Below, one piece after another: positions 3,382 through 43,276 of a stretch of DNA of 64,000 nucleotides. The stretch's first letter is position 1. The number at the start of each line of letters is the position of its first letter. Position numbers and translations under genes: made by a program. The notes under the pieces were generated by a model. It ran no database searches. It was not told where the DNA came from and saw only the letters and a list, made by a program, of their open reading frames with translations. The DNA comes from a virus, in the IMG/VR virus record IMGVR_UViG_3300028535_000001. The stretch is one strand, 5' to 3'.

Positions 3382-3402
3382 TATTTATACGCCTTATAAA
3401 TA
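3382..3402. promoter_or_regulatory. Back-to-back divergent late promoters (TATAAATA on - at 3382-3389, on + at 3395-3402)
   Basis: Two exact consensus boxes at the strand switch of the accessory island. Confidence 0.75.
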
Positions 3403-3444: not shown

Positions 3445-4320
3445 ATGACCAGATTAAATATAATTGTCACAAGTAAACCTGGAGATGGACTATTACACTA
3501 TAGTTATGAACAATGTAGCTATTTAAAAAAACTAGGAATTGACGCAAGAGTTGTGGTAATACCACACCCAAAATATTCAGAAGAATCTTATATAACTGCA
3601 ATGTCAGAAAAGTATATAAATTATGAACCTATGTATTTTGATTATGAAGAAAATGAAAAAGAAGTCAATTTAATTATGGGTAGAAGTATGATAACTCTAG
3701 CATATAGGAGTATTAAAGATTACGATAAAGATACACAATTGACTTTACGTTTATTATTTAAACTACCTCTTATATCTGTTTATTCAGAAAACCACCCAAA
3801 AGATTATCCATTAGCATTAGAATTTTTTAAACCTAAAAAAATAATTGACTTATGCGATCACGAAGTTTATACCAATGGTGTAGGTAGACAATTTGAAAAA
3901 ATTATTAACTATAGTGTATATAAACCTATAGTAAAAGATGTCAAGTTTAAATATCTATTTTTAGGCACAAATGAAAGTTATTATACTGAAATAAAAAAAC
4001 ATATTCATAAGTATCAAAATCATGGTATCCTGGCATACAAAGATAAGTACATTGATTATAATTTAAATCACGTATTTGTACCTGTAAAAAATTTATTAGG
4101 TATGTTTGATACTTACGTTTATACTAAACATACTTTTGATCCGGCACCAAGATTAATGCAAGAGTGTCGTTTCTTTGGAATGAATTTTATATATGCAAGA
4201 GATAAAAATATTAAAGACGGAGGACCTGTTTACTATAAAAGGCCTGCTAACTGTCTTACTGATCCTGTTAATAAACCAAATATAGAAGTAATTATAAAGG
4301 CAATGAATGACCTATTTTAA
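3445..4320 (+). CDS. Putative GT-B fold glycosyltransferase-like protein
   Basis: C-terminal FDTYVY...DPAPRLMQECRFFG resembles the GT-B donor-binding motif; located among sugar enzymes. Confidence 0.4.
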   Translation: MTRLNIIVTSKPGDGLLHYSYEQCSYLKKLGIDARVVVIPHPKYSEESYITAMSEKYINYEPMYFDYEENEKEVNLIMGRSMITLAYRSIKDYDKDTQLTLRLLFKLPLISVYSENHPKDYPLALEFFKPKKIIDLCDHEVYTNGVGRQFEKIINYSVYKPIVKDVKFKYLFLGTNESYYTEIKKHIHKYQNHGILAYKDKYIDYNLNHVFVPVKNLLGMFDTYVYTKHTFDPAPRLMQECRFFGMNFIYARDKNIKDGGPVYYKRPANCLTDPVNKPNIEVIIKAMNDLF

Positions 4321-4972
4321 AACTAGAACAACAATAAATGTAGACTCTTCTCATAGATGTCCTTTAGAATGTCCTAATTGCCAAAGACAAACTGCTTTTA
4401 CATTTAGAGGTAAAGTGGTTCATGGCCGTGATTTAAAAATGGATGAAATAGAAAAATTAGCAAAACATTTTAAGTCTTTTGATTTCTGTGGACAATTATC
4501 TGATCCAATACATCACCCTAAATTTCCTACAATATTAAATAGATTACATGAACTTGAAATACCGGAAGTTTTAGTACACAATGCCTCTACAGCAAAACCT
4601 ATGGCATGGTACATTAAATCTTGGAAAGCAAATCCAAATGCTTTGTGGACTTTTGCGTGTGACGGTTTACCTAAAGATAGTCACAAGTATAGGAAAAATC
4701 AAAACGGGGAAAAAATGTTTGAAATAATGAAAGAGTCAATTAAACATTTAAATACAATACCAATATGGCAGTTTATAATATTTAATTATAATGAAAATGA
4801 TATAGAAGAAGCTAAGATTATGGCTAATAGTAATGGAATAGATTTTCTGTTAACACAATCTTCCAGATGGAAAGATAGAGACGGAAAACCAGACCCATTG
4901 TTACCAACAGGAAAATATAAACCAGTATTAAAAAATAAATTACCAGGCAGGAGATTATATGAAGAATATTAA
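4307..4972 (+). CDS. Short radical SAM protein (paralogue 1)
   Basis: RCPLECPNCQR CxxxCxxC; FCGQLSDP; DG motif. Confidence 0.85.
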   Translation: MTYFKTRTTINVDSSHRCPLECPNCQRQTAFTFRGKVVHGRDLKMDEIEKLAKHFKSFDFCGQLSDPIHHPKFPTILNRLHELEIPEVLVHNASTAKPMAWYIKSWKANPNALWTFACDGLPKDSHKYRKNQNGEKMFEIMKESIKHLNTIPIWQFIIFNYNENDIEEAKIMANSNGIDFLLTQSSRWKDRDGKPDPLLPTGKYKPVLKNKLPGRRLYEEY

Positions 4973-5342
4973 ATTGAGACCTCGCTGTCTTCCTAATCCA
5001 GATGATCCAAATTATATAGAAATGCCTGTAGCAATAAACAATAGAGGTTATTTGTTACCTTGTTGTTGGTGTGATGAAAGAGTTGTGACTAATAGTGAAA
5101 AGTTTAAAAAAATATATGACGTAAGTAAACTTGAAAACTTTGATACAGTTAAACAATTGATGGATCAACCAGAATGGAAAGAATTTGAAAATGATTTAAT
5201 CAGAGCTAGAGACGTAGGAGATAATCTAGAAAAAATAAATGGTGTCTGTATTCATCACTGTAAAACAAGAGAAGAAGCAGATAAGATAAAAGTAGAAACA
5301 ACATTTAGAGACGGAAAAGAATTAAAGAAAGAAACGAAATAA
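4959..5342 (+). CDS. Stand-alone SPASM/twitch-like Fe-S protein (partner 1)
   Basis: C...AINNRGYLLPCCWCD...CIHHC; own GGAG RBS. Confidence 0.65.
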   Translation: MKNIKLRPRCLPNPDDPNYIEMPVAINNRGYLLPCCWCDERVVTNSEKFKKIYDVSKLENFDTVKQLMDQPEWKEFENDLIRARDVGDNLEKINGVCIHHCKTREEADKIKVETTFRDGKELKKETK

Positions 5343-5527
5343 TGGTATTCAGTATTAGCAGTCATCAAATATATCGTTTTCCTTGTATAGGTGTTTGTAG
5401 TATTGATGTAAATAGTGGTTACTGTTTAGGTTGTAGTCGTACTGAAAAAGAAGTGTACAAATGGGAAGATACAAACACAACCGATGAATGGAAAAAGAAA
5501 AACGAAGAAGAATTAAAAAATAGATAA
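5342..5527 (+). CDS. DUF1289-family Cys-rich small protein
   Basis: PCIGVCSID...GYCLGCSRT..E...W signature. Confidence 0.8.
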   Translation: MVFSISSHQIYRFPCIGVCSIDVNSGYCLGCSRTEKEVYKWEDTNTTDEWKKKNEEELKNR

Positions 5528-5531
5528 AATA

Positions 5532-6170
5532 ATGGAGAGATATTTTAAAAAAAGACGTAGGTTAAATTTAGATGTGACCCATAGATGTCCTCTTGAATGT
5601 CCTAACTGTCAAAGACAAACATCGTTTACCAATGATGGTTTGGTACCTCATGGACGTGATCTAACGTTAGATGAATTAGATATGATAGCAAAACATTTTA
5701 TAGATATTGGTTTTTGTGGACAGTTATCGGATCCAGTACATCACCCTAAATTTAATGAAATAATGAAAATGCTTAAAGATGTGCCAGAGGTTTTTGTTCA
5801 TAATGCAGCTACAGCTAAACCTATATCTTGGTATATTAAATCTTGGCAGGCAAATCCAAAAGCAGTTTGGATATTTGCTTGTGATGGTCTTCCTAAAGAC
5901 AGCCATAAATATAGGAAGAATCAAGATGGTATTAAAATGTTTGAGATAATGAAAGAGGCCAAAAAACACTTATTGAGTACACCAGTGTGGCAATATATTA
6001 GATTTAAATATAATGAAAACGATATTGAAACAGCAAAGAAAATGGCCGAAGATGAAGGATTAAGTTTTATACAAATAGAATCTTCAAGGTGGTTGGGTGA
6101 TGATGATCCTTTTAAACCTACAAACTCATTAAAATCAAAGGCGGCTGTTTATAAAGGTACAACTAAATGA
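5532..6170 (+). CDS. Short radical SAM protein (paralogue 2)
   Basis: RCPLECPNCQRQ; near-identical motifs to 4307..4972. Confidence 0.85.
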   Translation: MERYFKKRRRLNLDVTHRCPLECPNCQRQTSFTNDGLVPHGRDLTLDELDMIAKHFIDIGFCGQLSDPVHHPKFNEIMKMLKDVPEVFVHNAATAKPISWYIKSWQANPKAVWIFACDGLPKDSHKYRKNQDGIKMFEIMKEAKKHLLSTPVWQYIRFKYNENDIETAKKMAEDEGLSFIQIESSRWLGDDDPFKPTNSLKSKAAVYKGTTK

Positions 6171-6541
6171 AATTAAAACCTAAATGTTTACCTGATCCAG
6201 ATAACAAAGACTTTCAACCTATGCCTTTGGCAATAGATAATAGAGGTCATTTAATACCTTGTTGTTGGTGCGATCACCCTAAAACAACAAAGGCTGAGTT
6301 ATATAAACCTCTTTATAAAGTTAGTAAGCTTAAAGATTATAATAGTATAGATGAAATACTTGATACAAAAGAATGGAAACAATTTGAAGATGATCTAGTC
6401 CAAGCTAGAGATATAGGAGACAACATAAATAGAATTAACCAAACTTGTCTCTTTCATTGTAAGGCAAGAAAGTCAGATGACAATATAAAAATTGAAACTT
6501 ATTATGAAAAAGGTAAAGAAGTAGCGAAGGATATTAAATAA
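6167..6541 (+). CDS. Stand-alone SPASM/twitch-like Fe-S protein (partner 2)
   Basis: C...AIDNRGHLIPCCWCD...CLFHC; paralogue of 4959..5342. Confidence 0.65.
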   Translation: MKLKPKCLPDPDNKDFQPMPLAIDNRGHLIPCCWCDHPKTTKAELYKPLYKVSKLKDYNSIDEILDTKEWKQFEDDLVQARDIGDNINRINQTCLFHCKARKSDDNIKIETYYEKGKEVAKDIK

Positions 6542-7593
6542 TGGACGCATGGCATAAAGAATATGAATGGAACAAAGATGAATATATTAAACTCTTTGAT
6601 GAAGCAATGCAAGAAAAACAGGAACAAAATATAGAGTTCCTAGAAAAAACAATAACAAACACAATTGGAAGAAAATATGCTGTTGCTTGTCAAAACGGTA
6701 CAGACGCCTTAATGTTTTCTTTAATAACATTAGGAATAAAACCAGGTGATGAAGTAATAACAACAAACTTTTCTTGGATATCAACAGCGTCTTGTATATC
6801 TATGGTAGGTGCTAAACCTGTGTTTTGTGATATTGATTTAAAAAACTATCATATGACATTAGATAGTATAAAAAGAATGTATCAACCTGAAGTAAAAGCA
6901 ATTGTTTATCCTCATTTATTTGGCAACATGTCTAATATAACAGATATATTAGAATTTTGTAAAGAGAAAAATATATTTTTTATTGAAGACGCAGCTCAAG
7001 CCATAGGATCAAGTATCAATGGTGTAAAAGCAGGTACACTAGGAGATTTCAGTACTATAAGTTTCAATGCAAACAAAACTATTGGTGGTATCGCTGGTGG
7101 AGGAGTTGTACTAACAGATAACAAAGAACATGCCGATACAATAATAAAATTAAGAAAACATGGTAACCACGAAATGTTAGGATACAATTCTAAAATGTTA
7201 TTTTTTAATGCCAAGTTTATTGATTATAGATTAAAAAAATTAAATGTATATGTAGAAAGAAAACAAATCGTAGCAAAACTATATGATAATCATTTACAAG
7301 ATTACGTACAGGTACAAAAAACTACAAATGGAGTTAATCATACTTATCACAAATATATTATAAGGTTTGAAGATAAAGAAACAAGAAATAGAGTAAAGAA
7401 AAGAATAAATGCAAATGTTCATTATGAAAAACCTCTTTCAGAAAGACCTATGTACAAGAGTATAGATCATAGAAGTGATAATTGTATTAATTGTAAAACA
7501 ACCGGTGATACAATTTTAACCTTACCAATTGACCCATACTTAACAAAAGAAGAAATAGATAAAACGTGTAATACAATATTAGCCTCATTATGA
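6541..7593 (+). CDS. DegT/DnrJ/EryC1/StrS PLP-dependent sugar aminotransferase
   Basis: NGTDAL, GDEVIT, IEDAAQAIG, SFNANKTIGG motifs. Confidence 0.92.
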   Translation: MDAWHKEYEWNKDEYIKLFDEAMQEKQEQNIEFLEKTITNTIGRKYAVACQNGTDALMFSLITLGIKPGDEVITTNFSWISTASCISMVGAKPVFCDIDLKNYHMTLDSIKRMYQPEVKAIVYPHLFGNMSNITDILEFCKEKNIFFIEDAAQAIGSSINGVKAGTLGDFSTISFNANKTIGGIAGGGVVLTDNKEHADTIIKLRKHGNHEMLGYNSKMLFFNAKFIDYRLKKLNVYVERKQIVAKLYDNHLQDYVQVQKTTNGVNHTYHKYIIRFEDKETRNRVKKRINANVHYEKPLSERPMYKSIDHRSDNCINCKTTGDTILTLPIDPYLTKEEIDKTCNTILASL

Positions 7594-7898
7594 TAGAAAT
7601 AATAGCAAGTCCAGATTTAGATAAAATTAGTTATATTGACAGTAACGAAAATCCTGTTCCTATAACAGATCAAAATCTTATCAAGACTTGTCAAATGATG
7701 AAAAGAATATTAGGCACTAGTGATATATTTGATGAGAAATTAATTAATGAATATAATGAACCAGTGTATGAATATATTGTTGAGAAAACTTATATAATGC
7801 CAGAGTATGATTATGGTCCAGTATATTTTAAAGATAAACCAAAACAAAAAATGAAGATTGCATTTAATAAATTATTTTATGAAAAAATTAATAGTTAG
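7590..7898 (+). CDS. Hypothetical protein
   Basis: 102-aa ORF coupled by ATGA overlap. Confidence 0.6.
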   Translation: MIEIIASPDLDKISYIDSNENPVPITDQNLIKTCQMMKRILGTSDIFDEKLINEYNEPVYEYIVEKTYIMPEYDYGPVYFKDKPKQKMKIAFNKLFYEKINS

Positions 7899-8679
7899 TG
7901 GAGATAGTTTTACAGATTTAGATTTTGAATCTATGCCCCACCCTACATGGGACGTCTCATGGCCAAAATGGCCTGAACATTTAGCAAAACATTTAGGTAT
8001 GGAACTAGTTTGTTTAGCTAAAGGTGGGCAAGGCAATCAATTTATATACAGCACACTATTAGATGAAATAACTAAAACAAGAAAGGATGAAATAGGTATG
8101 GTTATAGCTGCATGGTCTCAATGTCATAGAAAAGATTGGGAAATAGGCCATGTAACTGGTAGTTTAAATAATCCCTACGATAGAAAAGGTAAATTATGGA
8201 GATCAAAACTAGTAGATGAAGACGGCGATCTACCAAATTGGGTAACTAAAAGTTTAAGAACATTTTTAAGTTTTCAGATACTTTGTGAAAGATACAACCT
8301 ACCTTACTATCATTTTCAAATGACATCATTATTTGAGCAATATCTTTATGGACCAATTTATAATTATGAATTAATAGAAGGAAAAAAATACAAAGTAAAA
8401 AAAAGCGATGGAGTTTTTGATAAAAAAAAATATATAATAAGAATACTACAAAGGGTAAGTGAATATGGGAAATGGATAAATAAATTCATAGGTTGGCCAG
8501 GACTAGAAGACCAATTTGATATGGCTGGATTCAATATGGCCCAACACATATTAGGTAGAGATCAAGAAACTAAAATAGCAAACGGTACTATAATATCTGA
8601 ACAAGATATTCATCCGAATGCAAAAGGACATAAATTAATTGCTACATTTTTAGCAAATTATATAGAGGAGAAAAAATGA
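7879..8679 (+). CDS. SGNH/GDSL-like hydrolase or acyltransferase
   Basis: GDSFT block I, G.GN block II, DIHPNAKGH block V; start reassigned to MKKLIV. Confidence 0.75.
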   Translation: MKKLIVSGDSFTDLDFESMPHPTWDVSWPKWPEHLAKHLGMELVCLAKGGQGNQFIYSTLLDEITKTRKDEIGMVIAAWSQCHRKDWEIGHVTGSLNNPYDRKGKLWRSKLVDEDGDLPNWVTKSLRTFLSFQILCERYNLPYYHFQMTSLFEQYLYGPIYNYELIEGKKYKVKKSDGVFDKKKYIIRILQRVSEYGKWINKFIGWPGLEDQFDMAGFNMAQHILGRDQETKIANGTIISEQDIHPNAKGHKLIATFLANYIEEKK

Positions 8680-8901: not shown

Positions 8902-9792
8902 ATGTCTATAACTTATGATGATAAAGAAATTGAGTTTTTTAACTTTCCAATAAAGCAAGTCATACTAGCCTTATCAGGCGGAACGGATTCAGCTGCTATT
9001 CTTTATTTAATATGTAAAAAATTTCCAGAAATAGAAATTATACCATATAATTGTCAAGATGTTAATAATCCATATGACATACAGGCAGCCGAAAAAATTA
9101 TAGAAATTGTTAAAGGTAAGTTTCCTAATAATAATATTAGAGATTTGGTAAGAGGAACTTATAATGATGGTGACGATTCACTCTTTCCAGAGGCAATAGA
9201 AGCCATTAAAAGAAGGCCAGAATGGTCTACCGAACAAGATAAAGCAGATGGTACAAAGTCTGAACATTTAGCTTTATTAAAAAAATATTGTCCTAGTAGA
9301 CATACTTTAGAGTATTATATTGAATATTTTAACCGGAAGAATGTATTATTAACACTTACCATTTTAAATAGAGTGACAAAAACTTTATTTTTAAATAAAT
9401 TAAAAGATGAATTACGTGTCAAATATATTGATGGTCCGTTGGACAACAGGCTCCTGGTGGCTCCTGACTCATACCATGTAAATGGTATGACCAATAATCC
9501 ACCAATAGAAGTACAAAAAAAATATCCTGTAATGCTTCAATGGGCTGAAACAAGAAGAAACCCTAGTGATAAAATTAGAAACACAAGAGATTATAGGACG
9601 TATTATCCTTTTGCTAATGTTGATAAAAAGTTTATAGCAGCTATATTTAAGGATGAAAAATTAATGGAGACTATATTTCCTCTCACAAGATCATGTGTAG
9701 GTATAGCAGAATTAACTGATAACTATACGAAAGAATGCCACCAATGTTTTTGGTGTTATGAAAAAAAATGGGCGTTTGATTTAAAATGGTAA
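8902..9792 (+). CDS. QueC-like PP-loop ATPase (paralogue 1)
   Basis: LSGGTDS PP-loop; C-terminal TRSC...CHQCFWC Zn motif. Confidence 0.75.
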   Translation: MSITYDDKEIEFFNFPIKQVILALSGGTDSAAILYLICKKFPEIEIIPYNCQDVNNPYDIQAAEKIIEIVKGKFPNNNIRDLVRGTYNDGDDSLFPEAIEAIKRRPEWSTEQDKADGTKSEHLALLKKYCPSRHTLEYYIEYFNRKNVLLTLTILNRVTKTLFLNKLKDELRVKYIDGPLDNRLLVAPDSYHVNGMTNNPPIEVQKKYPVMLQWAETRRNPSDKIRNTRDYRTYYPFANVDKKFIAAIFKDEKLMETIFPLTRSCVGIAELTDNYTKECHQCFWCYEKKWAFDLKW

Positions 9793-9804
9793 TAAATATT
9801 AATA

Positions 9805-10644
9805 ATGAAGTTTGATCTTACATATGCACAAAAAAACTATTTAGCGGTAGATTTCTTTCTATCAATGTCTTGTAATAAAGACTGCCACTATTGTACAAGT
9901 TATACTTTAGAAATGAGAAACTTGACAGTAGATTTAAATTTTTTAAGAAAATGTTTAGAGGCTTTAAAACCTTATAAAACTAGGATATGTTTACTTGGTG
10001 GAGAACCAGGTTTAATTAAGAACTTACGTGAAGTTATATCAATGATAAAAGAATATCCTAATTTTATTTGTCAAGTTTTATCTAACTCTTTTATAAGAAA
10101 AAGGTATCCTGAAATACTAGAAGATCCAGAAATATTATATGTAGAACACTTAACATTAGATTTTTATCCAGATGAAATAAAAAAATTAGGTAACTATGAA
10201 TATTTAGAGCCAAATGAAATGAATAACTACAACGTAGTACTTAAAACACCTAATTACTTTAAATATATAGCAAACTATCCAAAATTTAAAAAGAAATTAG
10301 CCCATAAAAATACTATGTTCAAAGCATTTAATGGTAGAACACCATCTAAAGGTGACGTAGAAGAAGTACACCAACAGGCGGCTGAAATAGACCGTAAAAT
10401 GTGTGCCGCTTTTCCAATGGTGCCTGTTATTGATTTTGAGAAAAGACACATAGTACACTGTAGTAAAAAATTTGCAAATAACACCGAATTGTCTAGGTCT
10501 TTCCCTATAACAAAAGAAAATATTGATAAGATGATGAATTTTCAATTATTTAAATACGAAAAGTATTGTGTAACATGTAAGGAGTATGTACAACCAAAGG
10601 GACACTTCCCTATTGAGAAGTACGCTAATATATTAAATAGATAA
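9805..10644 (+). CDS. Radical SAM protein with C-terminal Cys cluster
   Basis: CNKDCHYC, LLGGEP; C-terminal C...HC...CVTC. Confidence 0.85.
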   Translation: MKFDLTYAQKNYLAVDFFLSMSCNKDCHYCTSYTLEMRNLTVDLNFLRKCLEALKPYKTRICLLGGEPGLIKNLREVISMIKEYPNFICQVLSNSFIRKRYPEILEDPEILYVEHLTLDFYPDEIKKLGNYEYLEPNEMNNYNVVLKTPNYFKYIANYPKFKKKLAHKNTMFKAFNGRTPSKGDVEEVHQQAAEIDRKMCAAFPMVPVIDFEKRHIVHCSKKFANNTELSRSFPITKENIDKMMNFQLFKYEKYCVTCKEYVQPKGHFPIEKYANILNR

Positions 10645-10654
10645 GGAGTAAATT

Positions 10655-11053
10655 ATGAATGAAACAGATGATCCAGATTTAAGAGTGCCTAAACCCGCTG
10701 TTGACGCACAACTTAATGCTACACTAGACGATATTACAGACCACCAAGAAACTCGTTTAGAGTATATTAATCATATTACAGAGAAACTTAAAACTTGTTA
10801 TGATCCTGAAATTGATACAGACATTTATACACTTGGACTTATATATGATGTTAAGGTTACCTCTGAAAGATACGTATTTGTATTAATGAGTTTAACGTCT
10901 GCTTTTTGTCCAGCAGTAGATGAAATAGTTAATGGAGTTAAAATGGCAGTTGATAGTATTCCAGGACTAAAATGTACTGTTAGAATTACAATGACACCTA
11001 TGTGGTCTAGAGATATGATTGATCCCGAAATAAGAGAAGTAATGGGACTGTAA
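10655..11053 (+). CDS. DUF59/SufT-like Fe-S cluster assembly protein
   Basis: YDPEI..DIYTLGLIY...MSLTSAFCP...P.W motif. Confidence 0.88.
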   Translation: MNETDDPDLRVPKPAVDAQLNATLDDITDHQETRLEYINHITEKLKTCYDPEIDTDIYTLGLIYDVKVTSERYVFVLMSLTSAFCPAVDEIVNGVKMAVDSIPGLKCTVRITMTPMWSRDMIDPEIREVMGL

Positions 11054-11076
11054 TAAATAAGTATGAGGAGAACATT

Positions 11077-12597
11077 ATGAAAATTTACGCTGTTGCTATA
11101 AACTTACACGACCATAACACCTATGACGGTGTTTATCATAATCAATTAGAAAGACACACAAGATTTAAACATAACTTACCATACAAAGCAGAAGCTTATA
11201 ATCATCAATCAGATATATTAAATCCTGGTGATTATACTTTAAATGATAAATTTGTAGCAGAGCATGTTAAAAAAGAACCTGATACACTTTTCGCATTTAC
11301 ATATACTTATGGTGGTATAAGAAAAGCAAAAAAAGAATTATGGAATACTATATTTAAAGGTCACGATGAAATTTTAGATTATGAAGTTAAAACATTATGG
11401 CAAAGACACTATAAAGATGGCATTTATTATATTGACCATCATCAATCACATGCCGCTTATGCATTTTTAAATTCAGGTTATAAACAAAGTGATATACTTG
11501 CAATAGATGGTATTGGCTCAAGATATAGATGTGTATTCTTTGACAGAGACGGCAACGCAACTGATTTATCATCAAAACTTCCTATTGGGTGGTTATGGAA
11601 TCATATGTCTAACTTGACAGGATTTGGAACATTAGGTGCAAGTAAACTTATGGGTAAAGTTGGTTATGGAAAACATAGTGACTATTACTATAATGTATTA
11701 TCTCAAATTTTAGAAGGACCTATATTAGAAAGAAAATATCCAGAATGGAAACAAATTAAAATTTCTACACATGGTATAGATGACCTAGCATACACACTAC
11801 AAGAAATTACAATGGAAAAAATTAAAGAACATATCTATCCATTAAAAACATCCGATAATCTTTGTCTTGCTGGTGGTGTTGCTTACAATGGTTATGTAAA
11901 TGAAATGTTTACCGAAAAATGGGATAATGTTTTTATTCCACCTGCAATTGGTGATGAAGGCCAAGCTATTGGTACTTATCAACATGCTGAATATACAATA
12001 AACAATAGAGTACACAAGTCTAACGTATATGCCGGCAAATCATACGAGTATATAGGCGAAAAAAAATTAACGTCTTATAAAGAAATAGCACAAGAAATCG
12101 CCGATGGTAAGATAGTAGGTTGGTTTCAAGGTAAATCAGAAAGTGGTAACAGAGCATTAGGTAATAGAAGTATATTAGCTGATCCTAGAAATCCAGAAAT
12201 AAAAGATATTATCAATAGTACAATAAAAATGAGAGAAGATTTTAGACCATTCGCTCCAGCAGTTTTAGAAGAACATTATAAAGAATATTTTGAGACAAAT
12301 AGTCCTAGTCCTTATATGTCAAGAATATGTAAAGTAAAAAAAGATAAAAAATCAGTAGTACCTGGAATTACTCACGTTGATGGTACTGCTAGAATACAGA
12401 CAGTTAACAAAGAAGATAATAATAAATTTTATGAACTTATACGAGAGTTTGGTGTTATCACTGGTGTTCCTATGTTGCTTAATACAAGTTTCAATTGTCA
12501 AGAGCCTATAGTAGAAACACCTCAAAATGCATTAAGAACTTTTAAAAGAACAGGATTAGATATATTAATTATTAATGATTATGTGGTAAGAAAATGA
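11077..12597 (+). CDS. Carbamoyltransferase (NodU/CmcH/TobZ family)
   Basis: HHQSHA, IDGIG, LAGGVAYN, RALGNRSILADP, RPFAP, THVDGTARIQTV, LLNTSFN. Confidence 0.93.
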   Translation: MKIYAVAINLHDHNTYDGVYHNQLERHTRFKHNLPYKAEAYNHQSDILNPGDYTLNDKFVAEHVKKEPDTLFAFTYTYGGIRKAKKELWNTIFKGHDEILDYEVKTLWQRHYKDGIYYIDHHQSHAAYAFLNSGYKQSDILAIDGIGSRYRCVFFDRDGNATDLSSKLPIGWLWNHMSNLTGFGTLGASKLMGKVGYGKHSDYYYNVLSQILEGPILERKYPEWKQIKISTHGIDDLAYTLQEITMEKIKEHIYPLKTSDNLCLAGGVAYNGYVNEMFTEKWDNVFIPPAIGDEGQAIGTYQHAEYTINNRVHKSNVYAGKSYEYIGEKKLTSYKEIAQEIADGKIVGWFQGKSESGNRALGNRSILADPRNPEIKDIINSTIKMREDFRPFAPAVLEEHYKEYFETNSPSPYMSRICKVKKDKKSVVPGITHVDGTARIQTVNKEDNNKFYELIREFGVITGVPMLLNTSFNCQEPIVETPQNALRTFKRTGLDILIINDYVVRK

Positions 12598-13400
12598 TTT
12601 ATAAAAATAAATTTGGTGAAATTGATATATTAAATTCAAAATATAATTTTAATAATAAAACTATAGCCATATCTATGTCTGGCGGATGTGATAGCACTAT
12701 GTTATGTTATTTGCTTGCAAAAACTATACAAAAGGAAAAATTAAATATTATTATACAACCATATAATGGTTACGATATTGATATACCACACGATTCTGAA
12801 AATGTGCCAAACATTATAAAATATATGCAAAATAAATTTCCAGGTGTAATAAGATGGCCAATAGGGGTGGTTTATAAAACTTTAAGTAATGAAAAAACTG
12901 TTCTAGGTACAGGTACAGGAGATAGTATAGTATTTGAAGATGAGATAATTAGACAAGATTTGCCATTTAAAGGAAATAAAATTCTTTTTGAATCAGATAA
13001 AGATAAAAATAATTGGATCCGCCCATTAAGAGATTTAATTGAAAAAAAAGTAGTTGATAATATAGTAATTGTAGCACTTTCACAAGGTCCTCCTTTAAAA
13101 GTACAACTAGATATGATAAAAAAATACAATATGGTAGGTCCAAAATTAATACAAAGAATAGAAGGATATTTAGATAAAGAAGATTTAAATGAAATCCAAC
13201 AATTGAAGCAGAGCTCTAATCTTGTAAATAATGCACCATTTAAATTTATTGATAAACGATTTATAATACAATGTTATAAAGATTTTAAAATGATGGATGT
13301 TTTAAATGAAATGACCGAATCGTGTACAAAACCTGGTGGAAAATGTGGAACCTGTTGGTGGTGTAGAGAAAGAGAATGGGCAATGGAAGAAGTATGTTAG
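12594..13400 (+). CDS. QueC-like PP-loop ATPase (paralogue 2)
   Basis: MSGGCDS; TESC...CGTCWWCREREWA. Confidence 0.75.
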   Translation: MIYKNKFGEIDILNSKYNFNNKTIAISMSGGCDSTMLCYLLAKTIQKEKLNIIIQPYNGYDIDIPHDSENVPNIIKYMQNKFPGVIRWPIGVVYKTLSNEKTVLGTGTGDSIVFEDEIIRQDLPFKGNKILFESDKDKNNWIRPLRDLIEKKVVDNIVIVALSQGPPLKVQLDMIKKYNMVGPKLIQRIEGYLDKEDLNEIQQLKQSSNLVNNAPFKFIDKRFIIQCYKDFKMMDVLNEMTESCTKPGGKCGTCWWCREREWAMEEVC

Positions 13401-15706: not shown

Positions 15707-16993
15707 ATGGACGAGAAACAAAAAAAAGAATTTGAACAAAAGTTAAAGGATAAGAAACTATGGTTTTGTCCTTTACCTTTCACACATGTATTCTCTAGTT
15801 TAAGTGGTAGATTTGCACCTTGCTATGACGCACTAGCAAGAACTGGCCATAATATGGAAGATACTACAATAAGAGAATGGTATACTTCTGACTATCAAAA
15901 CACTTTAAGAAAAGAAATGTTAAAAGAGGATTATAATGGTAAATTCTTTAAACATCATTGTACAGGTTGTTGGAAACAAGAATCAAAATATGGTCGTTCA
16001 GATAGACAAAAATATGTTGAACAAATATTAGCAGGTACATTTGATAGTAAAGTACCAGAGTTATTAAGAGCTGTTCAAAAATTTCAAGATGACGGTAAGT
16101 TAGATTTAGATGAAAGAATATTAGACATTAAAATGAAGATGTTTGGTAATGCTTGTAATCTAGATTGTTATATGTGTACACCAAGAAGTGCTAACACTAG
16201 AACTATATCTTTAAAAAAATTAAAGAAAGTATATGATCCTGATTTAGACCCTAAAGACGGTGATAGAATGAATACTTTAAAACATGATGATATAGAATAT
16301 CTAGATGATATTGCCTCTGTAGCAAAATATACTAGATCAATCAAACTAATTGGTGGCGAACCTTTAGTTATGGTAAATCATTATAAACTATTAGACAAAT
16401 TAGTAAAAACAGGTTACTCAAAAGGTATAGACTTAATCTATAAAACAAACTTATCAGTATTTGATATGGACGGTTACAACTTTAGAGATTACTTTGACCA
16501 CTTCAAAGAATTTGTAATGAAAATATCTATAGATAGTTATGGTAAATATAATGACTATATAAGAAAGAAATCAGATTGGCCTTCACTTTTAGATAATATG
16601 AAAACAATGAGAGCAAGAAGAAATGCAAGAGTTAATGTTCACTCTGTAATATCTTTTTTAAGTGTATTAGAAAATTATAAACTAATTGCATTATTAAAAG
16701 ATATGGGTATAGCACATACGTTCTATATTATAGAATATCCAAAAATCTTACAAGTTAAAAATTTACCATATGATATAAAACAAAAATTAATACCTTTTTA
16801 TAAAGACTATCCTAACATTATAAGATCATTAGAAAAGGAACAAGATGAAGCAGAATTTATTAAGACTATTGAGTATTGTCAAGATTTAGATGAAAATGGC
16901 TTCAGTAAGGAAAAAGGACATGATTTATTTGCACTACATCCAGAACTAGAAGAACATTATATAAAGGCGAAACAACGTGAGACAAGACATTAA
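15707..16993 (+). CDS. Radical SAM protein with N-terminal twitch/SPASM domain
   Basis: WFCPLPF...PC...CTGCW, then GNACNLDCYMC and IGGEP. Confidence 0.88.
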   Translation: MDEKQKKEFEQKLKDKKLWFCPLPFTHVFSSLSGRFAPCYDALARTGHNMEDTTIREWYTSDYQNTLRKEMLKEDYNGKFFKHHCTGCWKQESKYGRSDRQKYVEQILAGTFDSKVPELLRAVQKFQDDGKLDLDERILDIKMKMFGNACNLDCYMCTPRSANTRTISLKKLKKVYDPDLDPKDGDRMNTLKHDDIEYLDDIASVAKYTRSIKLIGGEPLVMVNHYKLLDKLVKTGYSKGIDLIYKTNLSVFDMDGYNFRDYFDHFKEFVMKISIDSYGKYNDYIRKKSDWPSLLDNMKTMRARRNARVNVHSVISFLSVLENYKLIALLKDMGIAHTFYIIEYPKILQVKNLPYDIKQKLIPFYKDYPNIIRSLEKEQDEAEFIKTIEYCQDLDENGFSKEKGHDLFALHPELEEHYIKAKQRETRH

Positions 16994-17014: not shown

Positions 17015-17770
17015 ATGAAGCTAACATACGGCGAACAGACAATAGACTTATTTGGAGAAGACATTTTTCCAGATGGACCCCCAGAAAAGGTTGTAATCTC
17101 ATTATCAGGAGGTTGTGACTCATCATCACTTACATATTTAATTGGAACTAATTTTCCAAATATTCAAATGTATCCTTTTCATTCAAAAGATGAAGACTGC
17201 ACTATAGATACTGAACGTGCTATAGAAGTACATAAATTTTTACAAGACAAATTTCCTACAGTTAATGATTTAGAAGTCTTTAATGTAAGAACAAGTGATC
17301 CTAGTTGGCAAAAAAAGGCCAAAGAAGCAATGGCTAATCCAAAAAATAGTCCTACAGTAAATGGTAAAAAAGTTTCTATGTGGGGATCATTAAACGGTTG
17401 TTCAAAAGCTCTACAAAACAGAAACGTAAGATCAATTATGTCAACAAGATATTCAGCACCTGTTGTTATGGCCATGACTTCTAATCCTCCAGTAGATGTA
17501 CAAAAAGAAAGAGGATTTTATGATGTAGCAGAAAGAAAAAGGGATCCAGGCGACAGTAATTTAAAAATGATGGATATAATGCCAGCTGGTGGTAAAACAT
17601 ATCAACCATATCTAAAAGTTAATAAAAAGTTTGTAGCAGGTATCTTTAAAGAAAATAATTTAATGGAAACTTTATTTCCAAAAACTAAATCATGTGCTTG
17701 GTCAAAAACACTTGAAATATGTGGTAAATGTTTTTGGTGTAATGAAAAAGCTTGGGCATTTGAGGATTAG
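17015..17770 (+). CDS. QueC-like PP-loop ATPase (paralogue 3)
   Basis: LSGGCDS; TKSC...CGKCFWCNEKAWA. Confidence 0.75.
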   Translation: MKLTYGEQTIDLFGEDIFPDGPPEKVVISLSGGCDSSSLTYLIGTNFPNIQMYPFHSKDEDCTIDTERAIEVHKFLQDKFPTVNDLEVFNVRTSDPSWQKKAKEAMANPKNSPTVNGKKVSMWGSLNGCSKALQNRNVRSIMSTRYSAPVVMAMTSNPPVDVQKERGFYDVAERKRDPGDSNLKMMDIMPAGGKTYQPYLKVNKKFVAGIFKENNLMETLFPKTKSCAWSKTLEICGKCFWCNEKAWAFED

Positions 17771-37124: not shown

Positions 37125-37531
37125 CTATCTATAATACGTTTTCTTAAATCGGTGGTGGAGAACCTATGTTCTCTTTTATTGTAAACAATCTTTATGTGTT
37201 TCTTAACACATATCTCTTTACCAGTAAAATTCTTACCTTGATATTCTTCACCTATAATTCTAACTGATATATTATACATTTGGAATATATCTTCTAAATC
37301 TTTTTCTGTTTCGTATGGTATAACTTCATCTACATATTTTATAGCATTAAGTTGTATACTTCTCTCTACCAATGTTTGTATTGGTTTTTTCTTTTCTTTT
37401 GGTCTATCTATAGTTGGATCAGTTTGTAATCCAACAATCAAGTAATCGCATTCTTCTTTAGCGTCTTTTAACATCTGTACATGACCAGCATGTAACAAAT
37501 CAAAAGCACTACACGTAAATCCTACTTTCAT
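37121..37531 (-). CDS. Cytidylyltransferase (TagD-like)
   Basis: FDLLHAGH, LIVGLQTD, FSTTDLR. Confidence 0.9.
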   Translation of the reverse strand: MKVGFTCSAFDLLHAGHVQMLKDAKEECDYLIVGLQTDPTIDRPKEKKKPIQTLVERSIQLNAIKYVDEVIPYETEKDLEDIFQMYNISVRIIGEEYQGKNFTGKEICVKKHIKIVYNKREHRFSTTDLRKRIIDS

Positions 37532-38490
37532 ATTTTATCCTTTTCTTGCACTCTTTGACTATTAAATCCGTACAACTTTATATAGTTTGCAAGCCATTCA
37601 TGTCCTTTTTTATTTGGGTGTGTATTAGCTTTACTAATAACATAATCATAATTAACTAAATCTTTTGGAGCTATTTTATATAATGTTCTTCCATCGTCCT
37701 CCACATTTAATAACTTCATATCTGTATCTTTGTCGTGTACTCTTTCCTCGGATACGGAGTTCTTCTGCCGTTCTTCATAAGTACTATTAGCAGGATTAAA
37801 GGTAGAATTAGGTATATTATTGGCTAATCTATTTTCCACTCCCCAATTTTTATGTATTTGTACATCACCAAGAACAAAACCACCACATTCGTCAATGATA
37901 GGCCAACCAATAAAGTTTTTCATTTTATGGAAGTATGGTGATGTTTTAATTACATCACAACAACTATTATATATCTTTCTAAATGGTATACCATTATCTT
38001 TATATTCTACTTCATATAGATGATCTATAAATAAAGAAATCATTTGAAAATGTCTATATGGTATTCTATTATTTTCCATTAATGTTTGAAAGGCATACAT
38101 GTATCTTAATGAATCTAATATCCAAAAATGTACATGACCGTATAAATTAGGTTTACTATCATCCCAATTTAAAGAAATTTTTTGCCAATTTGCTCTTTGA
38201 CTTTTTGACCAGGCTGCAATACATAAACCAATTTCTTTTGGATCATGTGACACCACGTAATCTTGTATTGTTGAGAATATTCCTTGTTGACCAAAACCAC
38301 ACTTTGCTAAACAAACTAATTCCATATCTAATTTTTTTGCTAGTAGTTGTGCCCAATTAGGAAAATTCTTTATAGTAATTATATCACCATCATACCTTTG
38401 CCCTGGTACAACACCTTTTGGTGAATTTATTAAATTAACATATTCAATATCTGACCAACTACAACCACCAATTACTAATTTCTTTTTCAT
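37528..38490 (-). CDS. SGNH-like protein, paralogue of 7879..8679
   Basis: GGCSWS, MELVCLAK.G.G, IAAWS, THPNKKGH. Confidence 0.7.
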   Translation of the reverse strand: MKKKLVIGGCSWSDIEYVNLINSPKGVVPGQRYDGDIITIKNFPNWAQLLAKKLDMELVCLAKCGFGQQGIFSTIQDYVVSHDPKEIGLCIAAWSKSQRANWQKISLNWDDSKPNLYGHVHFWILDSLRYMYAFQTLMENNRIPYRHFQMISLFIDHLYEVEYKDNGIPFRKIYNSCCDVIKTSPYFHKMKNFIGWPIIDECGGFVLGDVQIHKNWGVENRLANNIPNSTFNPANSTYEERQKNSVSEERVHDKDTDMKLLNVEDDGRTLYKIAPKDLVNYDYVISKANTHPNKKGHEWLANYIKLYGFNSQRVQEKDKI

Positions 38491-38501
38491 TTTACCTTTT
38501 A

Positions 38502-39935
38502 CTATCCAACTGATCCTTCCATACTAACTTCTAATAGTTTATGTGCCTCTACTGCAAATTCCATAGGTAGTTTTTGAAATACATCTTTGCAAAAACCTGA
38601 TATAAGCAAGTTTCTAGCGTCTTCATCTTTTAGTCCACGTTGTCTTACATAAAATAGTTGTTCTTCATCTAGTTTAGATGTAGTTGCTTCGTGATTACAA
38701 TGGCTTGTTGAATTTTTATTTTCAATATATGGTACTGTATGAGCAGAACAATGGCTACCTAGTATTAATGAATCGCATTGTGTAAAGTTTTTTGAACTAC
38801 TTGCATTTTTCAAAATCTTTACTAAACCTCTGTACGTATTTGATGAATGTCCTGCAGATATTCCTTTTGATATAATTATACTTTTAGTATTTTTACCCAT
38901 GTGAATCATTTTAGTACCTGTGTCAGCCTGTTGTTTTCCATTTGTTAATGCAACTGAATAAAATTCTCCTACTGAATTATCACCCATTAATAAACAAGAT
39001 GGATACTTCCAAGTTATAGCAGAACCAGTTTCAAATTGTGTCCAAGAGATTTTTGAATTACGTCCTTTGCACTTGCCACGTTTAGTAACAAAATTGTATA
39101 TACCGCCTTTACCTGTAATAGGATCTCCTGGGTACCAGTTTTGTATTGTTGAATATTTTATTTCTGCGTCATCTAGTGCTACAAGTTCTACGTTAGCAGC
39201 GTGTAGTTGATTCTCATCCCTCATTGGTGCTGTACAACCTTCAAGGTAACTTACATAACTGCCTTTGTCTGCTATAATTAAAGTTCTTTCAAACTGTCCT
39301 GTGTTAGCCGCATTGATTCTAAAATATGTACTTAACTCCATTGGACATCTTATTCCTGGTGGCACATATACAAATGAACCATCTGTAAATACAGCAGAAT
39401 TTAAAGCGGCAAATGAATGATCACTTATAGGTATAACTGATCCTAAATATTTTTTTACAAGATCAGGATGTTCTTGTACTGCGTCTGAAAATGAACAAAA
39501 TATAATTCCTTTTTTTGATAATTCTTCTTTAAATGTAGTAGCAACGGATACAGAATCAAATACAGCGTCAACGGCCACTCCTGCTAGTTTGGCTCTTTCA
39601 GTTAATGGTATTCCTAATCTTTCAAAATCTTTTTTAATTTCTGGATCAACATCATCATATGATTTAGGACCTACTTTTGGTGCTGAGTAGTATGATATTG
39701 CTTGATAGTCTATAGGCTTAATATTAAGATTTGCCCAATCGGGTTGTTTTAAAATTTTCCATCTACGGTATGCTTTTAATCTAAATTCAAGTAACCATTT
39801 AGGTTCTTTTTTAATTTTTGAAATTTGTTTTATTGTGTTTTCGTTAAGGCCTGGTGGTAATGTTACTGATTCAACGTTTGTTGTAAACCCAGCATCATAT
39901 TTTTTGTTAATTTTTTCTTGTAGTATGTTATCCAT
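38502..39935 (-). CDS. sufB: Fe-S cluster assembly scaffold SufB
   Basis: [53 protein letters not shown]. Confidence 0.97.
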
Positions 39936-40384: not shown

Positions 40385-40514
40385 TTTCAACTTTTTCATC
40401 AATATCTTTTTTCTTTTTCTTCCAAGGTTTAAGGTCTAACAAGACATAAAATATAACTCCACCACATAGACAGATAAACAAAAAACCTAATATTACTTTT
40501 AATATTGTTATCAT
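40362..40514 (-). CDS. Single-TM 50-aa protein (not in ORF track)
   Basis: MITILKVILGFLFICLCGGVIFYVLLDLKPWKK...; ATGA overlap. Confidence 0.55.
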   Translation of the reverse strand: MITILKVILGFLFICLCGGVIFYVLLDLKPWKKKKKDIDEKVENDTDSNH

Positions 40515-40864
40515 TTTTTAAACATTTCATCTAATCTACTATAGAAACTTTCTTTACTAGAATAGCCTACTAATCTTGCAACTTCTTTTCTACCATTCCA
40601 TATAATAAAAGTTGGTGTTCCTCTAATACCTTTAATTCTATTTTCGTTCATTGCCATTATAAACCAAAAAGGTTCTTCATTATGTTCTATAATAGTAAGT
40701 GGTAATTCTTTATTTTTAGAACCATATGAATAGCTAAAGTCTTCGGCGACTTGTTTAATAAATGCTTGACAAATATGACAATGCTTGTTTGAATACATTA
40801 ACAAGTCTAATGCTTGTATTGTTGTAGCATAAAACATTGCTAAAAGAAATATTAATATTTTCAT
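40511..40864 (-). CDS. Exported thioredoxin-like protein (SoxS-like)
   Basis: Signal peptide, CHIC, GTPTF, E..RLVGY. Confidence 0.8.
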   Translation of the reverse strand: MKILIFLLAMFYATTIQALDLLMYSNKHCHICQAFIKQVAEDFSYSYGSKNKELPLTIIEHNEEPFWFIMAMNENRIKGIRGTPTFIIWNGRKEVARLVGYSSKESFYSRLDEMFKK

Positions 40865-41292
40865 TATTTTTTCTCCACATGTGTTGCTTCACCTTTTTCA
40901 GTATCTATCCATTCTACCACTTGTGTATATTTTTTTGACTTAGCACATGTAGTCCTACATGCATTTGGTCCTATATTATTTGATAAGTCTTCTGCAAATT
41001 GTTTCCATTGTTTTGATTTTAATATATCTTCTATTTTATTGTTATCATCTATAACACTTGCTTTCAACATATCTTGCATTAATGGGTCGTTCATTGTATT
41101 TGGATCGTCAATTCTACAACAAGGTAGTAATACACCTTGATTAGAAACTGCTAAAGCAATTGCGTCTTTAAAACATAAAGGGTCTAACTCAATATCTCCT
41201 TTTGCTCTTAATGGTGATTTAGCTCCTAAAGAGTTATTGATTCTTCTAATATCAGCAGACCTATTAATTCCTCCAATTCTTTTTTTAATCAT
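40864..41292 (-). CDS. Stand-alone SPASM/twitch-like Fe-S protein (partner 3)
   Basis: PLC...LAVSNQGVLLPCCRID...CRTTC. Confidence 0.65.
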   Translation of the reverse strand: MIKKRIGGINRSADIRRINNSLGAKSPLRAKGDIELDPLCFKDAIALAVSNQGVLLPCCRIDDPNTMNDPLMQDMLKASVIDDNNKIEDILKSKQWKQFAEDLSNNIGPNACRTTCAKSKKYTQVVEWIDTEKGEATHVEKK

Positions 41293-42037
41293 CTCCGTTT
41301 TTCCTATCAAAACAACCACCCCTTACACACTCCTCAATGGATTGATGTTCGCTATGGTCATTTAATGTACTTTTTGTTTTAGGCTTTAACCAATCATCAT
41401 CATCTGTCCATCTTGCACTATTAATTATTATAAAATTAACATCATTATCTTTGGCCATTTTCATTGCTTGCCCAATACTCCTTTCATTATAACTGAATAT
41501 AATATATTGCCATAATGGTTTTGTGGAAAGATACTTTTTACTTTCTAACATAATCTTAAATAGTTTTTCGCCATCTTGATTTTTTCTATATATTCTACTA
41601 TCTTCAGGCATGCCATCTATACCAAATATCCAATTTGCTTTAGGGTTTGCTTGAAAGGCATTGATATAATGTTGCATAGGTTTTAAAGATGAAGCTACAT
41701 GTACTTCAACTTTAGTACCACGTTCTTTTGTGATTTTTAATAATTCGTTTATTTTTGGGTGATGTATTGGGTCTGAATATTGACCACAAAAAGATATTCT
41801 TGTAAACCAATCCAATAATTTATTAAATTCAGGTATTGTTAAATCTCTGCCTGGTACTTTAAGGCCTTTGTATAAGTAACTTCTTTGACGACCACAACGT
41901 AAACATTCTAATGGACACCTATGAGATAGATCAATGTTTAAACGTTTATGTCTTCTATCAAAAAAGGAATTTTCCTTTATTTTGATACCGTGTTCTTTAA
42001 AACACATGTCTATCTTTTCTCTATTCGTTTCAATCAT
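41285..42037 (-). CDS. Short radical SAM protein (paralogue 3)
   Basis: HRCPLECLRC, FCGQYSDPIHHP. Confidence 0.85.
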   Translation of the reverse strand: MIETNREKIDMCFKEHGIKIKENSFFDRRHKRLNIDLSHRCPLECLRCGRQRSYLYKGLKVPGRDLTIPEFNKLLDWFTRISFCGQYSDPIHHPKINELLKITKERGTKVEVHVASSLKPMQHYINAFQANPKANWIFGIDGMPEDSRIYRKNQDGEKLFKIMLESKKYLSTKPLWQYIIFSYNERSIGQAMKMAKDNDVNFIIINSARWTDDDDWLKPKTKSTLNDHSEHQSIEECVRGGCFDRKNGDD

Positions 42038-42054
42038 AATATAAAACTATTTAG

Positions 42055-42378
42055 TTAAATACTAAAAGATGTTCCACAACCACATGATGATTTAGTATTA
42101 GGGTTTTTGAATTGGAAAGAACTACCAAAGATTTCTTCTTTGTAATCCAACTCCATACCTGCGACATATATTTCAAATAGATTATCTATTACTACTAGAT
42201 TGTCAACTATAATATCATCTTTAGTTGGTGTCTTTTCAAATTCGTTTGGTATAAATGACCATTCGTATTCGTGACCTGCACAGCCACCACCTTTTACTTC
42301 TAGTCTAACATAATCTACTTTATGTTTTTCTTTTAAAATATTTAAATGTGCTTTCGCACCTTCCGTTAATGTAATCAT
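42055..42378 (-). CDS. A-type Fe-S carrier (IscA/SufA/HesB)
   Basis: GGGCAG, NPN.KSSCGCGTSF. Confidence 0.93.
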   Translation of the reverse strand: MITLTEGAKAHLNILKEKHKVDYVRLEVKGGGCAGHEYEWSFIPNEFEKTPTKDDIIVDNLVVIDNLFEIYVAGMELDYKEEIFGSSFQFKNPNTKSSCGCGTSFSI

Positions 42379-42997: not shown

Positions 42998-43276
42998 TAT
43001 ATCTCCTTACAATTTATTTTTTTATTAATAAATCACGTCAGAAATATTAGATATAGAATGAAATAGTTGGTAAATACCAACACTTATATTTATAAAAGAT
43101 TAGTGTAAAAAGTGAAAATTGTTTTTGCGATTAGTAATCAATGACCGATCAGTGTCCGGCCTATAGGGCTTTGGAGCCTTCCTTGAAACTCAACACCGTT
43201 ATATATGTTTTGTAAGATTTATAGGCCTAGTGTCTAATAGAATAATAATAACAAGTTAATACTCCTAAATACTTGT

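Follow-up and report, generated by a model that had tools for sequence, protein, structure and literature searches.

The 64,000-nucleotide stretch of viral DNA analysed here (IMG/VR record IMGVR_UViG_3300028535_000001; hereafter the window, GC content 31.5%) comes from a pelagimyophage, a marine phage of the SAR11 type, and carries three copies of a two-gene unit in which a radical S-adenosylmethionine (SAM, AdoMet) core and a small cysteine-rich partner are encoded separately. We consider it probable that each pair makes up one radical SAM enzyme built from two polypeptides. The larger protein would be the AdoMet-radical core, folded as a partial TIM barrel, with the [4Fe–4S] cluster that cleaves SAM bound at its CX3CX2C motif. 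The smaller, whose gene has its start overlapping or abutting the core stop, would be the detached equivalent of a C-terminal twitch-type (truncated SPASM) domain. Of its five invariant cysteines, four (C10, C35 or C36, C97 and C101) most likely carry one auxiliary [4Fe–4S] cluster. Core and partner are predicted to dock into a heterodimer equivalent to the fused radical SAM–twitch enzymes, in which the substrate radical is bound by the auxiliary cluster or gives up an electron to it. The genes of the three pairs, and the small gene that lies between pairs 1 and 2, are:

4307–4972, + strand: radical SAM core of pair 1 (221 residues), with C18-x3-C22-x2-C25 and FCGQLSDPIHHP instead of the usual GGEP motif.
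4959–5342, + strand: twitch-like, putative auxiliary-cluster subunit of pair 1 (127 residues), with invariant C10, C35, C36, C97 and C101 and the motif NRGxLxPCC.
5342–5527, + strand: DUF1289 small four-cysteine protein (61 residues; PF06945, E 7e-14).
5532–6170, + strand: radical SAM core of pair 2 (212 residues), matched by the family model; its clade is sister to that of the pair 1 core.
6167–6541, + strand: twitch-like subunit of pair 2 (124 residues), with an ATGA overlap with its core; SPASM E 0.031.
41285–42037, − strand: radical SAM core of pair 3 (250 residues); TIGR04317 E 4.9e-8, far under that model's cut-off.
40864–41319, − strand: twitch-like subunit of pair 3 (151 residues from a GTG); SPASM E 0.0045, NF033640 positions 4–74, E 1.3e-4.

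When the window is translated in all six frames, hidden Markov models (HMMs) of the two families match exactly three cores and exactly three partners (E 1e-34 to 1e-107) and nothing further at E ≤ 1; this three-plus-three match is far beyond chance. An initial annotation of the DNA had described a radical SAM/SPASM-like pair present three times, two of the pairs in tandem around a DUF1289 gene and the third (40864–42037) beside sufA and near sufB. The six open reading frames (ORFs) and the DUF1289 ORF do lie at those positions, and an A-type carrier gene of the SufA/IscA family (42055–42378) and a SufB gene (38502–39935) flank pair 3. Identity is 48–63% among the window cores and 25–49% among the window partners. 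Core and partner of pair 1 overlap by 14 nt, with GGAG 7 nt ahead of the partner ATG. The start of the pair 3 partner is uncertain: the GTG gives a 35-nt overlap with core 3, an ATG at 41292 one of 8 nt. All three pairs are also present on another IMG/VR contig (G001), the nearest record and the one used for comparison, which has 30% of the window 31-mers in common. Of named phages, Pelagibacter phage Mosig EXVC030M (Kyanoviridae) is the nearest, with 67.6% identity over part of the region by blastn.

The assignment of the small protein draws on its cysteines and on profile comparison. Five cysteines are invariant in 35 non-redundant members of the partner family, arranged as C-x(12-26)-NRG-x-L-x-P-C-C ... 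C-x3-C. The opening motif of twitch and SPASM modules, C-x(9-15)-G-x4-C, is recognizable, with an invariant first cysteine and with NRG-x-L-x-P-C providing G-x4-C; most partners have an opening spacing of 12–13 residues, and those of window pairs 1 and 2, which carry an insert, one of 19. The seven-cysteine motif of two-cluster SPASM domains (CX2CX5CX3C included) is absent, the closing C-x3-C standing alone. Five invariant cysteines are enough for one cluster and too few for two, which points to the one-cluster twitch type and not to a full SPASM domain. The SPASM model PF13186 is matched by 31 of the 35 members at E ≤ 0.1 (best 1.3e-6), and the twitch end of NF033640 (positions ~4–74) by six partners. 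With hhalign, the partner profile aligns to residues 248–341 of a fused radical SAM–SPASM protein from a Rhodobacteraceae bin (87% probability, E 4e-6). The structure model of the partner is globular (predicted local distance difference test score, pLDDT, 86.6) and its best structural match, a weak one, is the twitch domain of BtrN. At the level of sequence, these comparisons support common descent of the partner and the SPASM/twitch auxiliary-cluster domain. Where the initial annotation took the small ORF for the auxiliary-cluster domain itself, the homology thus holds, and the five invariant cysteines leave no place for the full two-cluster SPASM form. The partner profile was also compared with the C-termini of gp083 and gp084 of Campylobacter phage CP220, which are distant radical SAM relatives; the matches are unconvincing (17% and 0.6% probability).

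The core belongs to the radical SAM superfamily and is divergent within it. C18, C22 and C25 of the SAM-binding CX3CX2C motif are invariant in all 29 aligned cores and, together with GQxSDP, characterize the window family; the core has the partial (β/α)6 TIM barrel of the radical SAM fold. Its best structural matches prominently include the SPASM/twitch enzymes SkfB, MoaA, BlsE, SuiB, anSME, PqqE and EpeE. Against the PF04055 cut-off of 29.5 bits, two window cores score 25.9 and 18.3 bits and the third has no match. Neither the core-family nor the partner-family profile has a significant sequence match in the PDB. Identity as MoaA (GTP 3′,8-cyclase) was considered and rejected, as the TIGR02666 scores, 18.9 and 10.8 bits, fall short of the 284 bits that the model requires. 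In the Mosig genome (MT647606.1, 62425–63391) the core is labelled ‘putative molybdenum cofactor biosynthesis enzyme’ and the partner ‘hypothetical protein’; the MoaA-type name of that core is unsupported by the NCBIfam scores.

The division into two genes is real and conserved, as the initial annotation had supposed. Our viral survey covered 79 related IMG/VR loci with 68 distinct core/partner pairs, and none of the 68 is fused. Core and partner overlap or abut in 63 pairs (−56 to +1 nt); 31 partners are read in the +1 frame and 16 in the +2 frame, and a strong Shine–Dalgarno motif (GGAG type) precedes 18 of 47 partner starts, compared with a background of 4.8%. Both genes are under purifying selection (dN/dS 0.08–0.21 at useful divergence). 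The split pair also occurs in the complete genome of the cultured phage Mosig, on Hyphomicrobiales metagenome-assembled genome (MAG) contigs of 174 and 227 kb (51% GC) and on a Pseudobdellovibrionaceae contig of 56% GC. Its conservation in the 68 viral pairs, and its presence both in a cultured isolate and in MAGs of high GC, show that the split is no assembly error. No DUF1289 homologue was found in any of the 79 loci, and in every other locus with tandem pairs, that of the nearest relative included, core 2 starts right at the stop of partner 1; the DUF1289 gene is an insertion peculiar to the window phage. Its product scores 51.9 bits against PF06945 (cut-off 27) and has four conserved cysteines as CxGxC...CxGC. 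The gene, whose start overlaps the stop of the pair 1 partner (TAATG), is translationally coupled to that partner.

Fused relatives show where the partner belongs. The initial annotation had proposed a search for them, and natural C-terminal fusions do exist, although they are rare (five of the best 150 cluster representatives). A profile search run exhaustively over 1.84 billion cluster representatives gave 449 partner relatives (clusters at 50% identity, mostly from marine metagenomes), the best 150 of which were inspected. About 144 of these are free-standing proteins of 53–182 residues. In five (P0032, P0062, P0077, P0132 and P0137; 314–349 residues, from marine metagenomes) the partner domain is C-terminal to the same core; every core motif is present in their N-terminal part, and the break between the split genes maps to their 20–40-residue linker. 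This placement in one polypeptide is confined to such fused homologues, the window and all 68 viral pairs being without it. A word-indexed search with a partner query had returned no longer proteins; the fused forms emerged only in the exhaustive search. In a quick maximum-likelihood (ML) tree (IQ-TREE) the fused forms branch near the fused outgroup, a basal position that depends on long branches and is compatible with one ancient fission. Two proteins of 458 residues (P0001 and P0002) have another architecture, a QueC-like PP-loop ATPase fused N-terminally to a core of the window family; the ATPase is 38% identical to the product of window gene 8902–9792 (E 8e-59), and a separate 111-residue partner still follows these fusions.

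Other arrangements were seen among the relatives. After the PP-loop/core fusions of P0001 and P0002 (L092:1404–3116) come the free twitch subunit, another radical SAM protein and a carbamoyltransferase, an order that echoes window positions 8902–12597. One metagenomic protein (P0111, 352 residues) has a twitch-like domain at its N-terminus and then a region of ~260 residues with no family match. A contig of a Rhodobacteraceae bin carries both a distant fused radical SAM–SPASM protein (L086:1976–3031, 351 residues, above the PF13186 cut-off) and a split pair (L086:5962–6889).

The pair has been duplicated as a whole. In the same tree the pair 1 and pair 2 cores form sister clades of eight rows each (98% support), which implies a tandem duplication of the two-gene unit that predates the divergence of these phages; other loci carry tandem pairs of their own. 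The initial annotation's suggestion of diversification by duplication is borne out to this extent. Related phages have the tandem duplication behind pairs 1 and 2 as well, and the family has radiated in marine myophages. At 90% identity the core family comprises at least 998 clusters, of which most come from marine metagenomes; the best 120 are all 210–232 residues long, one of them occurs on 270 contigs, and at best they are named ‘MoaA/NifB/PqqE/SkfB family’. Among 50,697 GenBank phage records the partner was found in Mosig only, annotated as hypothetical, and the core is present in only 7 of 185,579 species genomes. The split form is common in ocean viruses and lacks annotation.

Genes near pairs 1 and 2 bear on the chemistry:

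3445–4320, + strand: upstream neighbour, probably a GT-B-type glycosyltransferase (291 residues), in 62 of the 79 related loci.
6541–7593, + strand: downstream neighbour, a DegT-family, LegC/PseC-like sugar aminotransferase, in 61 of the 79.
7858–8679, + strand: neighbour, weakly GDSL/SGNH-like (273 residues), in 54 of the 79.
8902–9792, + strand: QueC-like PP-loop ATPase, the gene whose homologue is fused to the core in P0001 and P0002.

The 3445–4320 product has no Pfam or NCBIfam match; Atlas feature matches to viral clusters named glycosyltransferase family 1 are a lead only. Pairs 1 and 2 lie within a block of ~20 kb of tailoring-enzyme genes, which also encodes a class-B-like radical SAM protein, an AspH-like cupin, the DegT aminotransferase, three QueC-like PP-loop ATPases, two more radical SAM proteins, a carbamoyltransferase, a GT8-like protein, a MOSC domain and a SufT-like protein. 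The PP-loop ATPase genes are at 8902–9792, 12594–13400 and 17015–17770 and the two further radical SAM genes (Fer4_12 type) at 9805–10644 and 15707–16993, which suggests repeated PP-loop/radical SAM partnerships. The block around pair 3 contains SufA, a thioredoxin-like protein, a GNAT protein and SufB, and the MAG pairs adjoin an SDR gene. The thioredoxin-like protein, which has a hydrophobic N-terminus, is encoded at 40511–40864 and adjoins pair 3. Directly downstream of SufB is an ORF of 320 residues (37528–38490) with no Pfam match, whose position would suit a divergent SufD-like partner. A further phage gene for Fe–S assembly, SufT/DUF59-like, is at 10655–11053; with SufA and SufB its product would support assembly of the clusters.

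Boxes resembling the T4 late promoter, TATAAATA, stand upstream of both gene blocks, at 3395–3402 (+) and 43087–43094 (−), and face both ways in the divergent intergenic region before 3445 (3382–3402). The motif is not over-represented in the AT-rich window (14 found vs 19 expected); its count does not exceed chance, so late expression is only a lead.

Tentatively and with low confidence, we favour a radical oxidation or other rearrangement of a sugar that feeds an aminotransferase, by analogy with known pathways. Radical SAM enzymes are paired with DegT-family aminotransferases in sugar pathways, BtrN with BtrS and DesII with DesI and DesV. A sugar would be oxidized or otherwise rearranged by a radical route to a keto sugar, which the DegT enzyme would aminate, much as BtrN and its aminotransferase do. 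It is the glycosyltransferase-like, LegC/PseC-like DegT and SGNH-like neighbours, present in 54–62 of the 79 loci, that make sugar tailoring the favoured reading. The DegT and glycosyltransferase neighbours are absent at pair 3 and at the MAG pairs, which counts against it; the sugar reading may fail for some paralogues, whose substrates may differ.

A substrate of another kind for the same two-subunit architecture is a possibility that we take seriously without thinking it likely: a protein or peptide (virion fibre proteins, or a peptide of the type made on ribosomes and modified after translation), or a nucleotide or deazapurine-type base. Most characterized SPASM/twitch enzymes act on peptides, and the core's top structural neighbours include SkfB, SuiB and PqqE. 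The fusion of a QueC-like ATPase to a family core elsewhere, the three PP-loop genes and further radical SAM genes of the island, and the distance of pair 3 from any sugar gene point in the same direction. The best-conserved neighbours, however, are the glycosyltransferase-like protein and the LegC/PseC-like nucleotide-sugar aminotransferase, and neither an RRE/PqqD-like domain nor a short ORF for a precursor was observed beside the window pairs.

Several observations weigh against the two-polypeptide reading of the pairs, or limit how far it can be taken. In five pairs the partner lies 0.75–1.5 kb from the core and one clade has the order partner then core, so that tight coupling of the two genes is not universal. 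The window partners fall under the PF13186 cut-off of 21.5 bits (17.7, 15.0 and no match), every NCBIfam match is far under its cut-off, and no characterized enzyme is near enough to assign the chemistry. The co-divergence of each core with its adjacent partner counts in favour of the reading, with a caveat: the strong Mantel correlation of their pairwise identities (r 0.855, reached by 0 of 2000 permutations) is inflated by shared descent.

The loose spacing and reversed order would suit a small protein that acts as a free Fe–S electron carrier or cluster-delivery factor and not as a stably bound subunit, as would its small size, its many cysteines and the Fe–S assembly genes nearby. We think this improbable, since the partner is homologous to the C-terminal domain of the fused relatives, each core paralogue keeps its own co-diverging partner, and the window holds as many partners as cores. 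Radical SAM maturases are often encoded beside cysteine-rich precursors, and the small ORF could on those grounds be the precursor-protein substrate of the enzyme; its confident globular model, its SPASM homology and its fusion to the enzyme at the auxiliary-domain position in relatives make this very unlikely. Least probable of all is a split that is not biological: fused homologues exist and the frames overlap in most pairs, but a frameshift introduced in assembly or sequencing, or a programmed one that yields a single fused protein, is excluded for practical purposes by the occurrence of the split in independent metagenomes, an isolate genome and high-GC MAGs, by the varying frame and overlap, by the partners' own ATG codons and enriched Shine–Dalgarno motifs, and by the reversed order and 1.5-kb separation, which frameshifting cannot join.

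With two polypeptides per enzyme as the preferred reading, a wider one can be sketched. The architectures seen (C-terminal fusions, a PP-loop–core fusion that keeps a free twitch subunit, and the partner-then-core order) might reflect a modular two-subunit system, opened by detachment of the auxiliary module, whose parts can be reordered, separated, duplicated and re-fused. Ocean phages with Suf genes of their own may have radiated this system into new radical sugar tailoring of virion or host surface glycans in oxic seawater. We regard this proposal as speculative and unlikely. Pelagimyophages infect the most abundant marine bacteria, and the pair genes lie within their hypervariable host-recognition island, a location from which the chemistry may bear on phage–host surface interactions in the ocean. 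For the host-recognition clusters of pelagimyophages, ‘radical SAM gene cassettes’ have been mentioned in passing (PMC7029224).

SPASM/twitch radical SAM enzymes have, to our knowledge, been treated as single polypeptides, and we found no description of a split radical SAM/twitch enzyme in the searchable literature, the coverage of which is incomplete. If the subunits are indeed separate, omitting or swapping them would reveal what the auxiliary cluster contributes, and the family would show how domain order in the radical SAM superfamily can change. It would also correct the annotation of cores called MoaA-like and partners called ‘hypothetical’.

Among known systems, the pairs resemble the twitch enzymes (BtrN, SkfB and the MoaA type), which have a CX3CX2C barrel and a module of ~80–110 residues with an opening C...G-x4-C hairpin, later cysteines and capacity for one cluster; the best structural matches of the core include SkfB and MoaA, and that of the partner is, weakly, the BtrN twitch domain. 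They differ from these enzymes in that the auxiliary module is a separate gene product, in the closing C-x3-C (not C-x2-C), in an extra invariant cysteine (the CC pair) and in GQxSDP for GGEP, and identity to any solved enzyme is 8–15%. With the SPASM enzymes (PF13186; anSME, PqqE and SuiB) the partner has homology at the profile level, in 31 of 35 members, but it is unfused and has five invariant cysteines where two auxiliary clusters take seven or eight. NF033640, a radical SAM family with an N-terminal twitch domain, is matched at its twitch end by six partners, and the partner-then-core clade mirrors its domain order; the similarity is at the domain level only, given 21.2 bits against a cut-off of 170, cores that barely match (E 0.62) and separate proteins. 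The fused members of the family itself are single polypeptides and rare, unlike the split pairs, which have in common with them the core motifs FCGQLSDP, DGLPxDSxxYRxNQDGEK and WQYIxFxYNE and the partner motifs PKC...LxPCCW...CxxxC.

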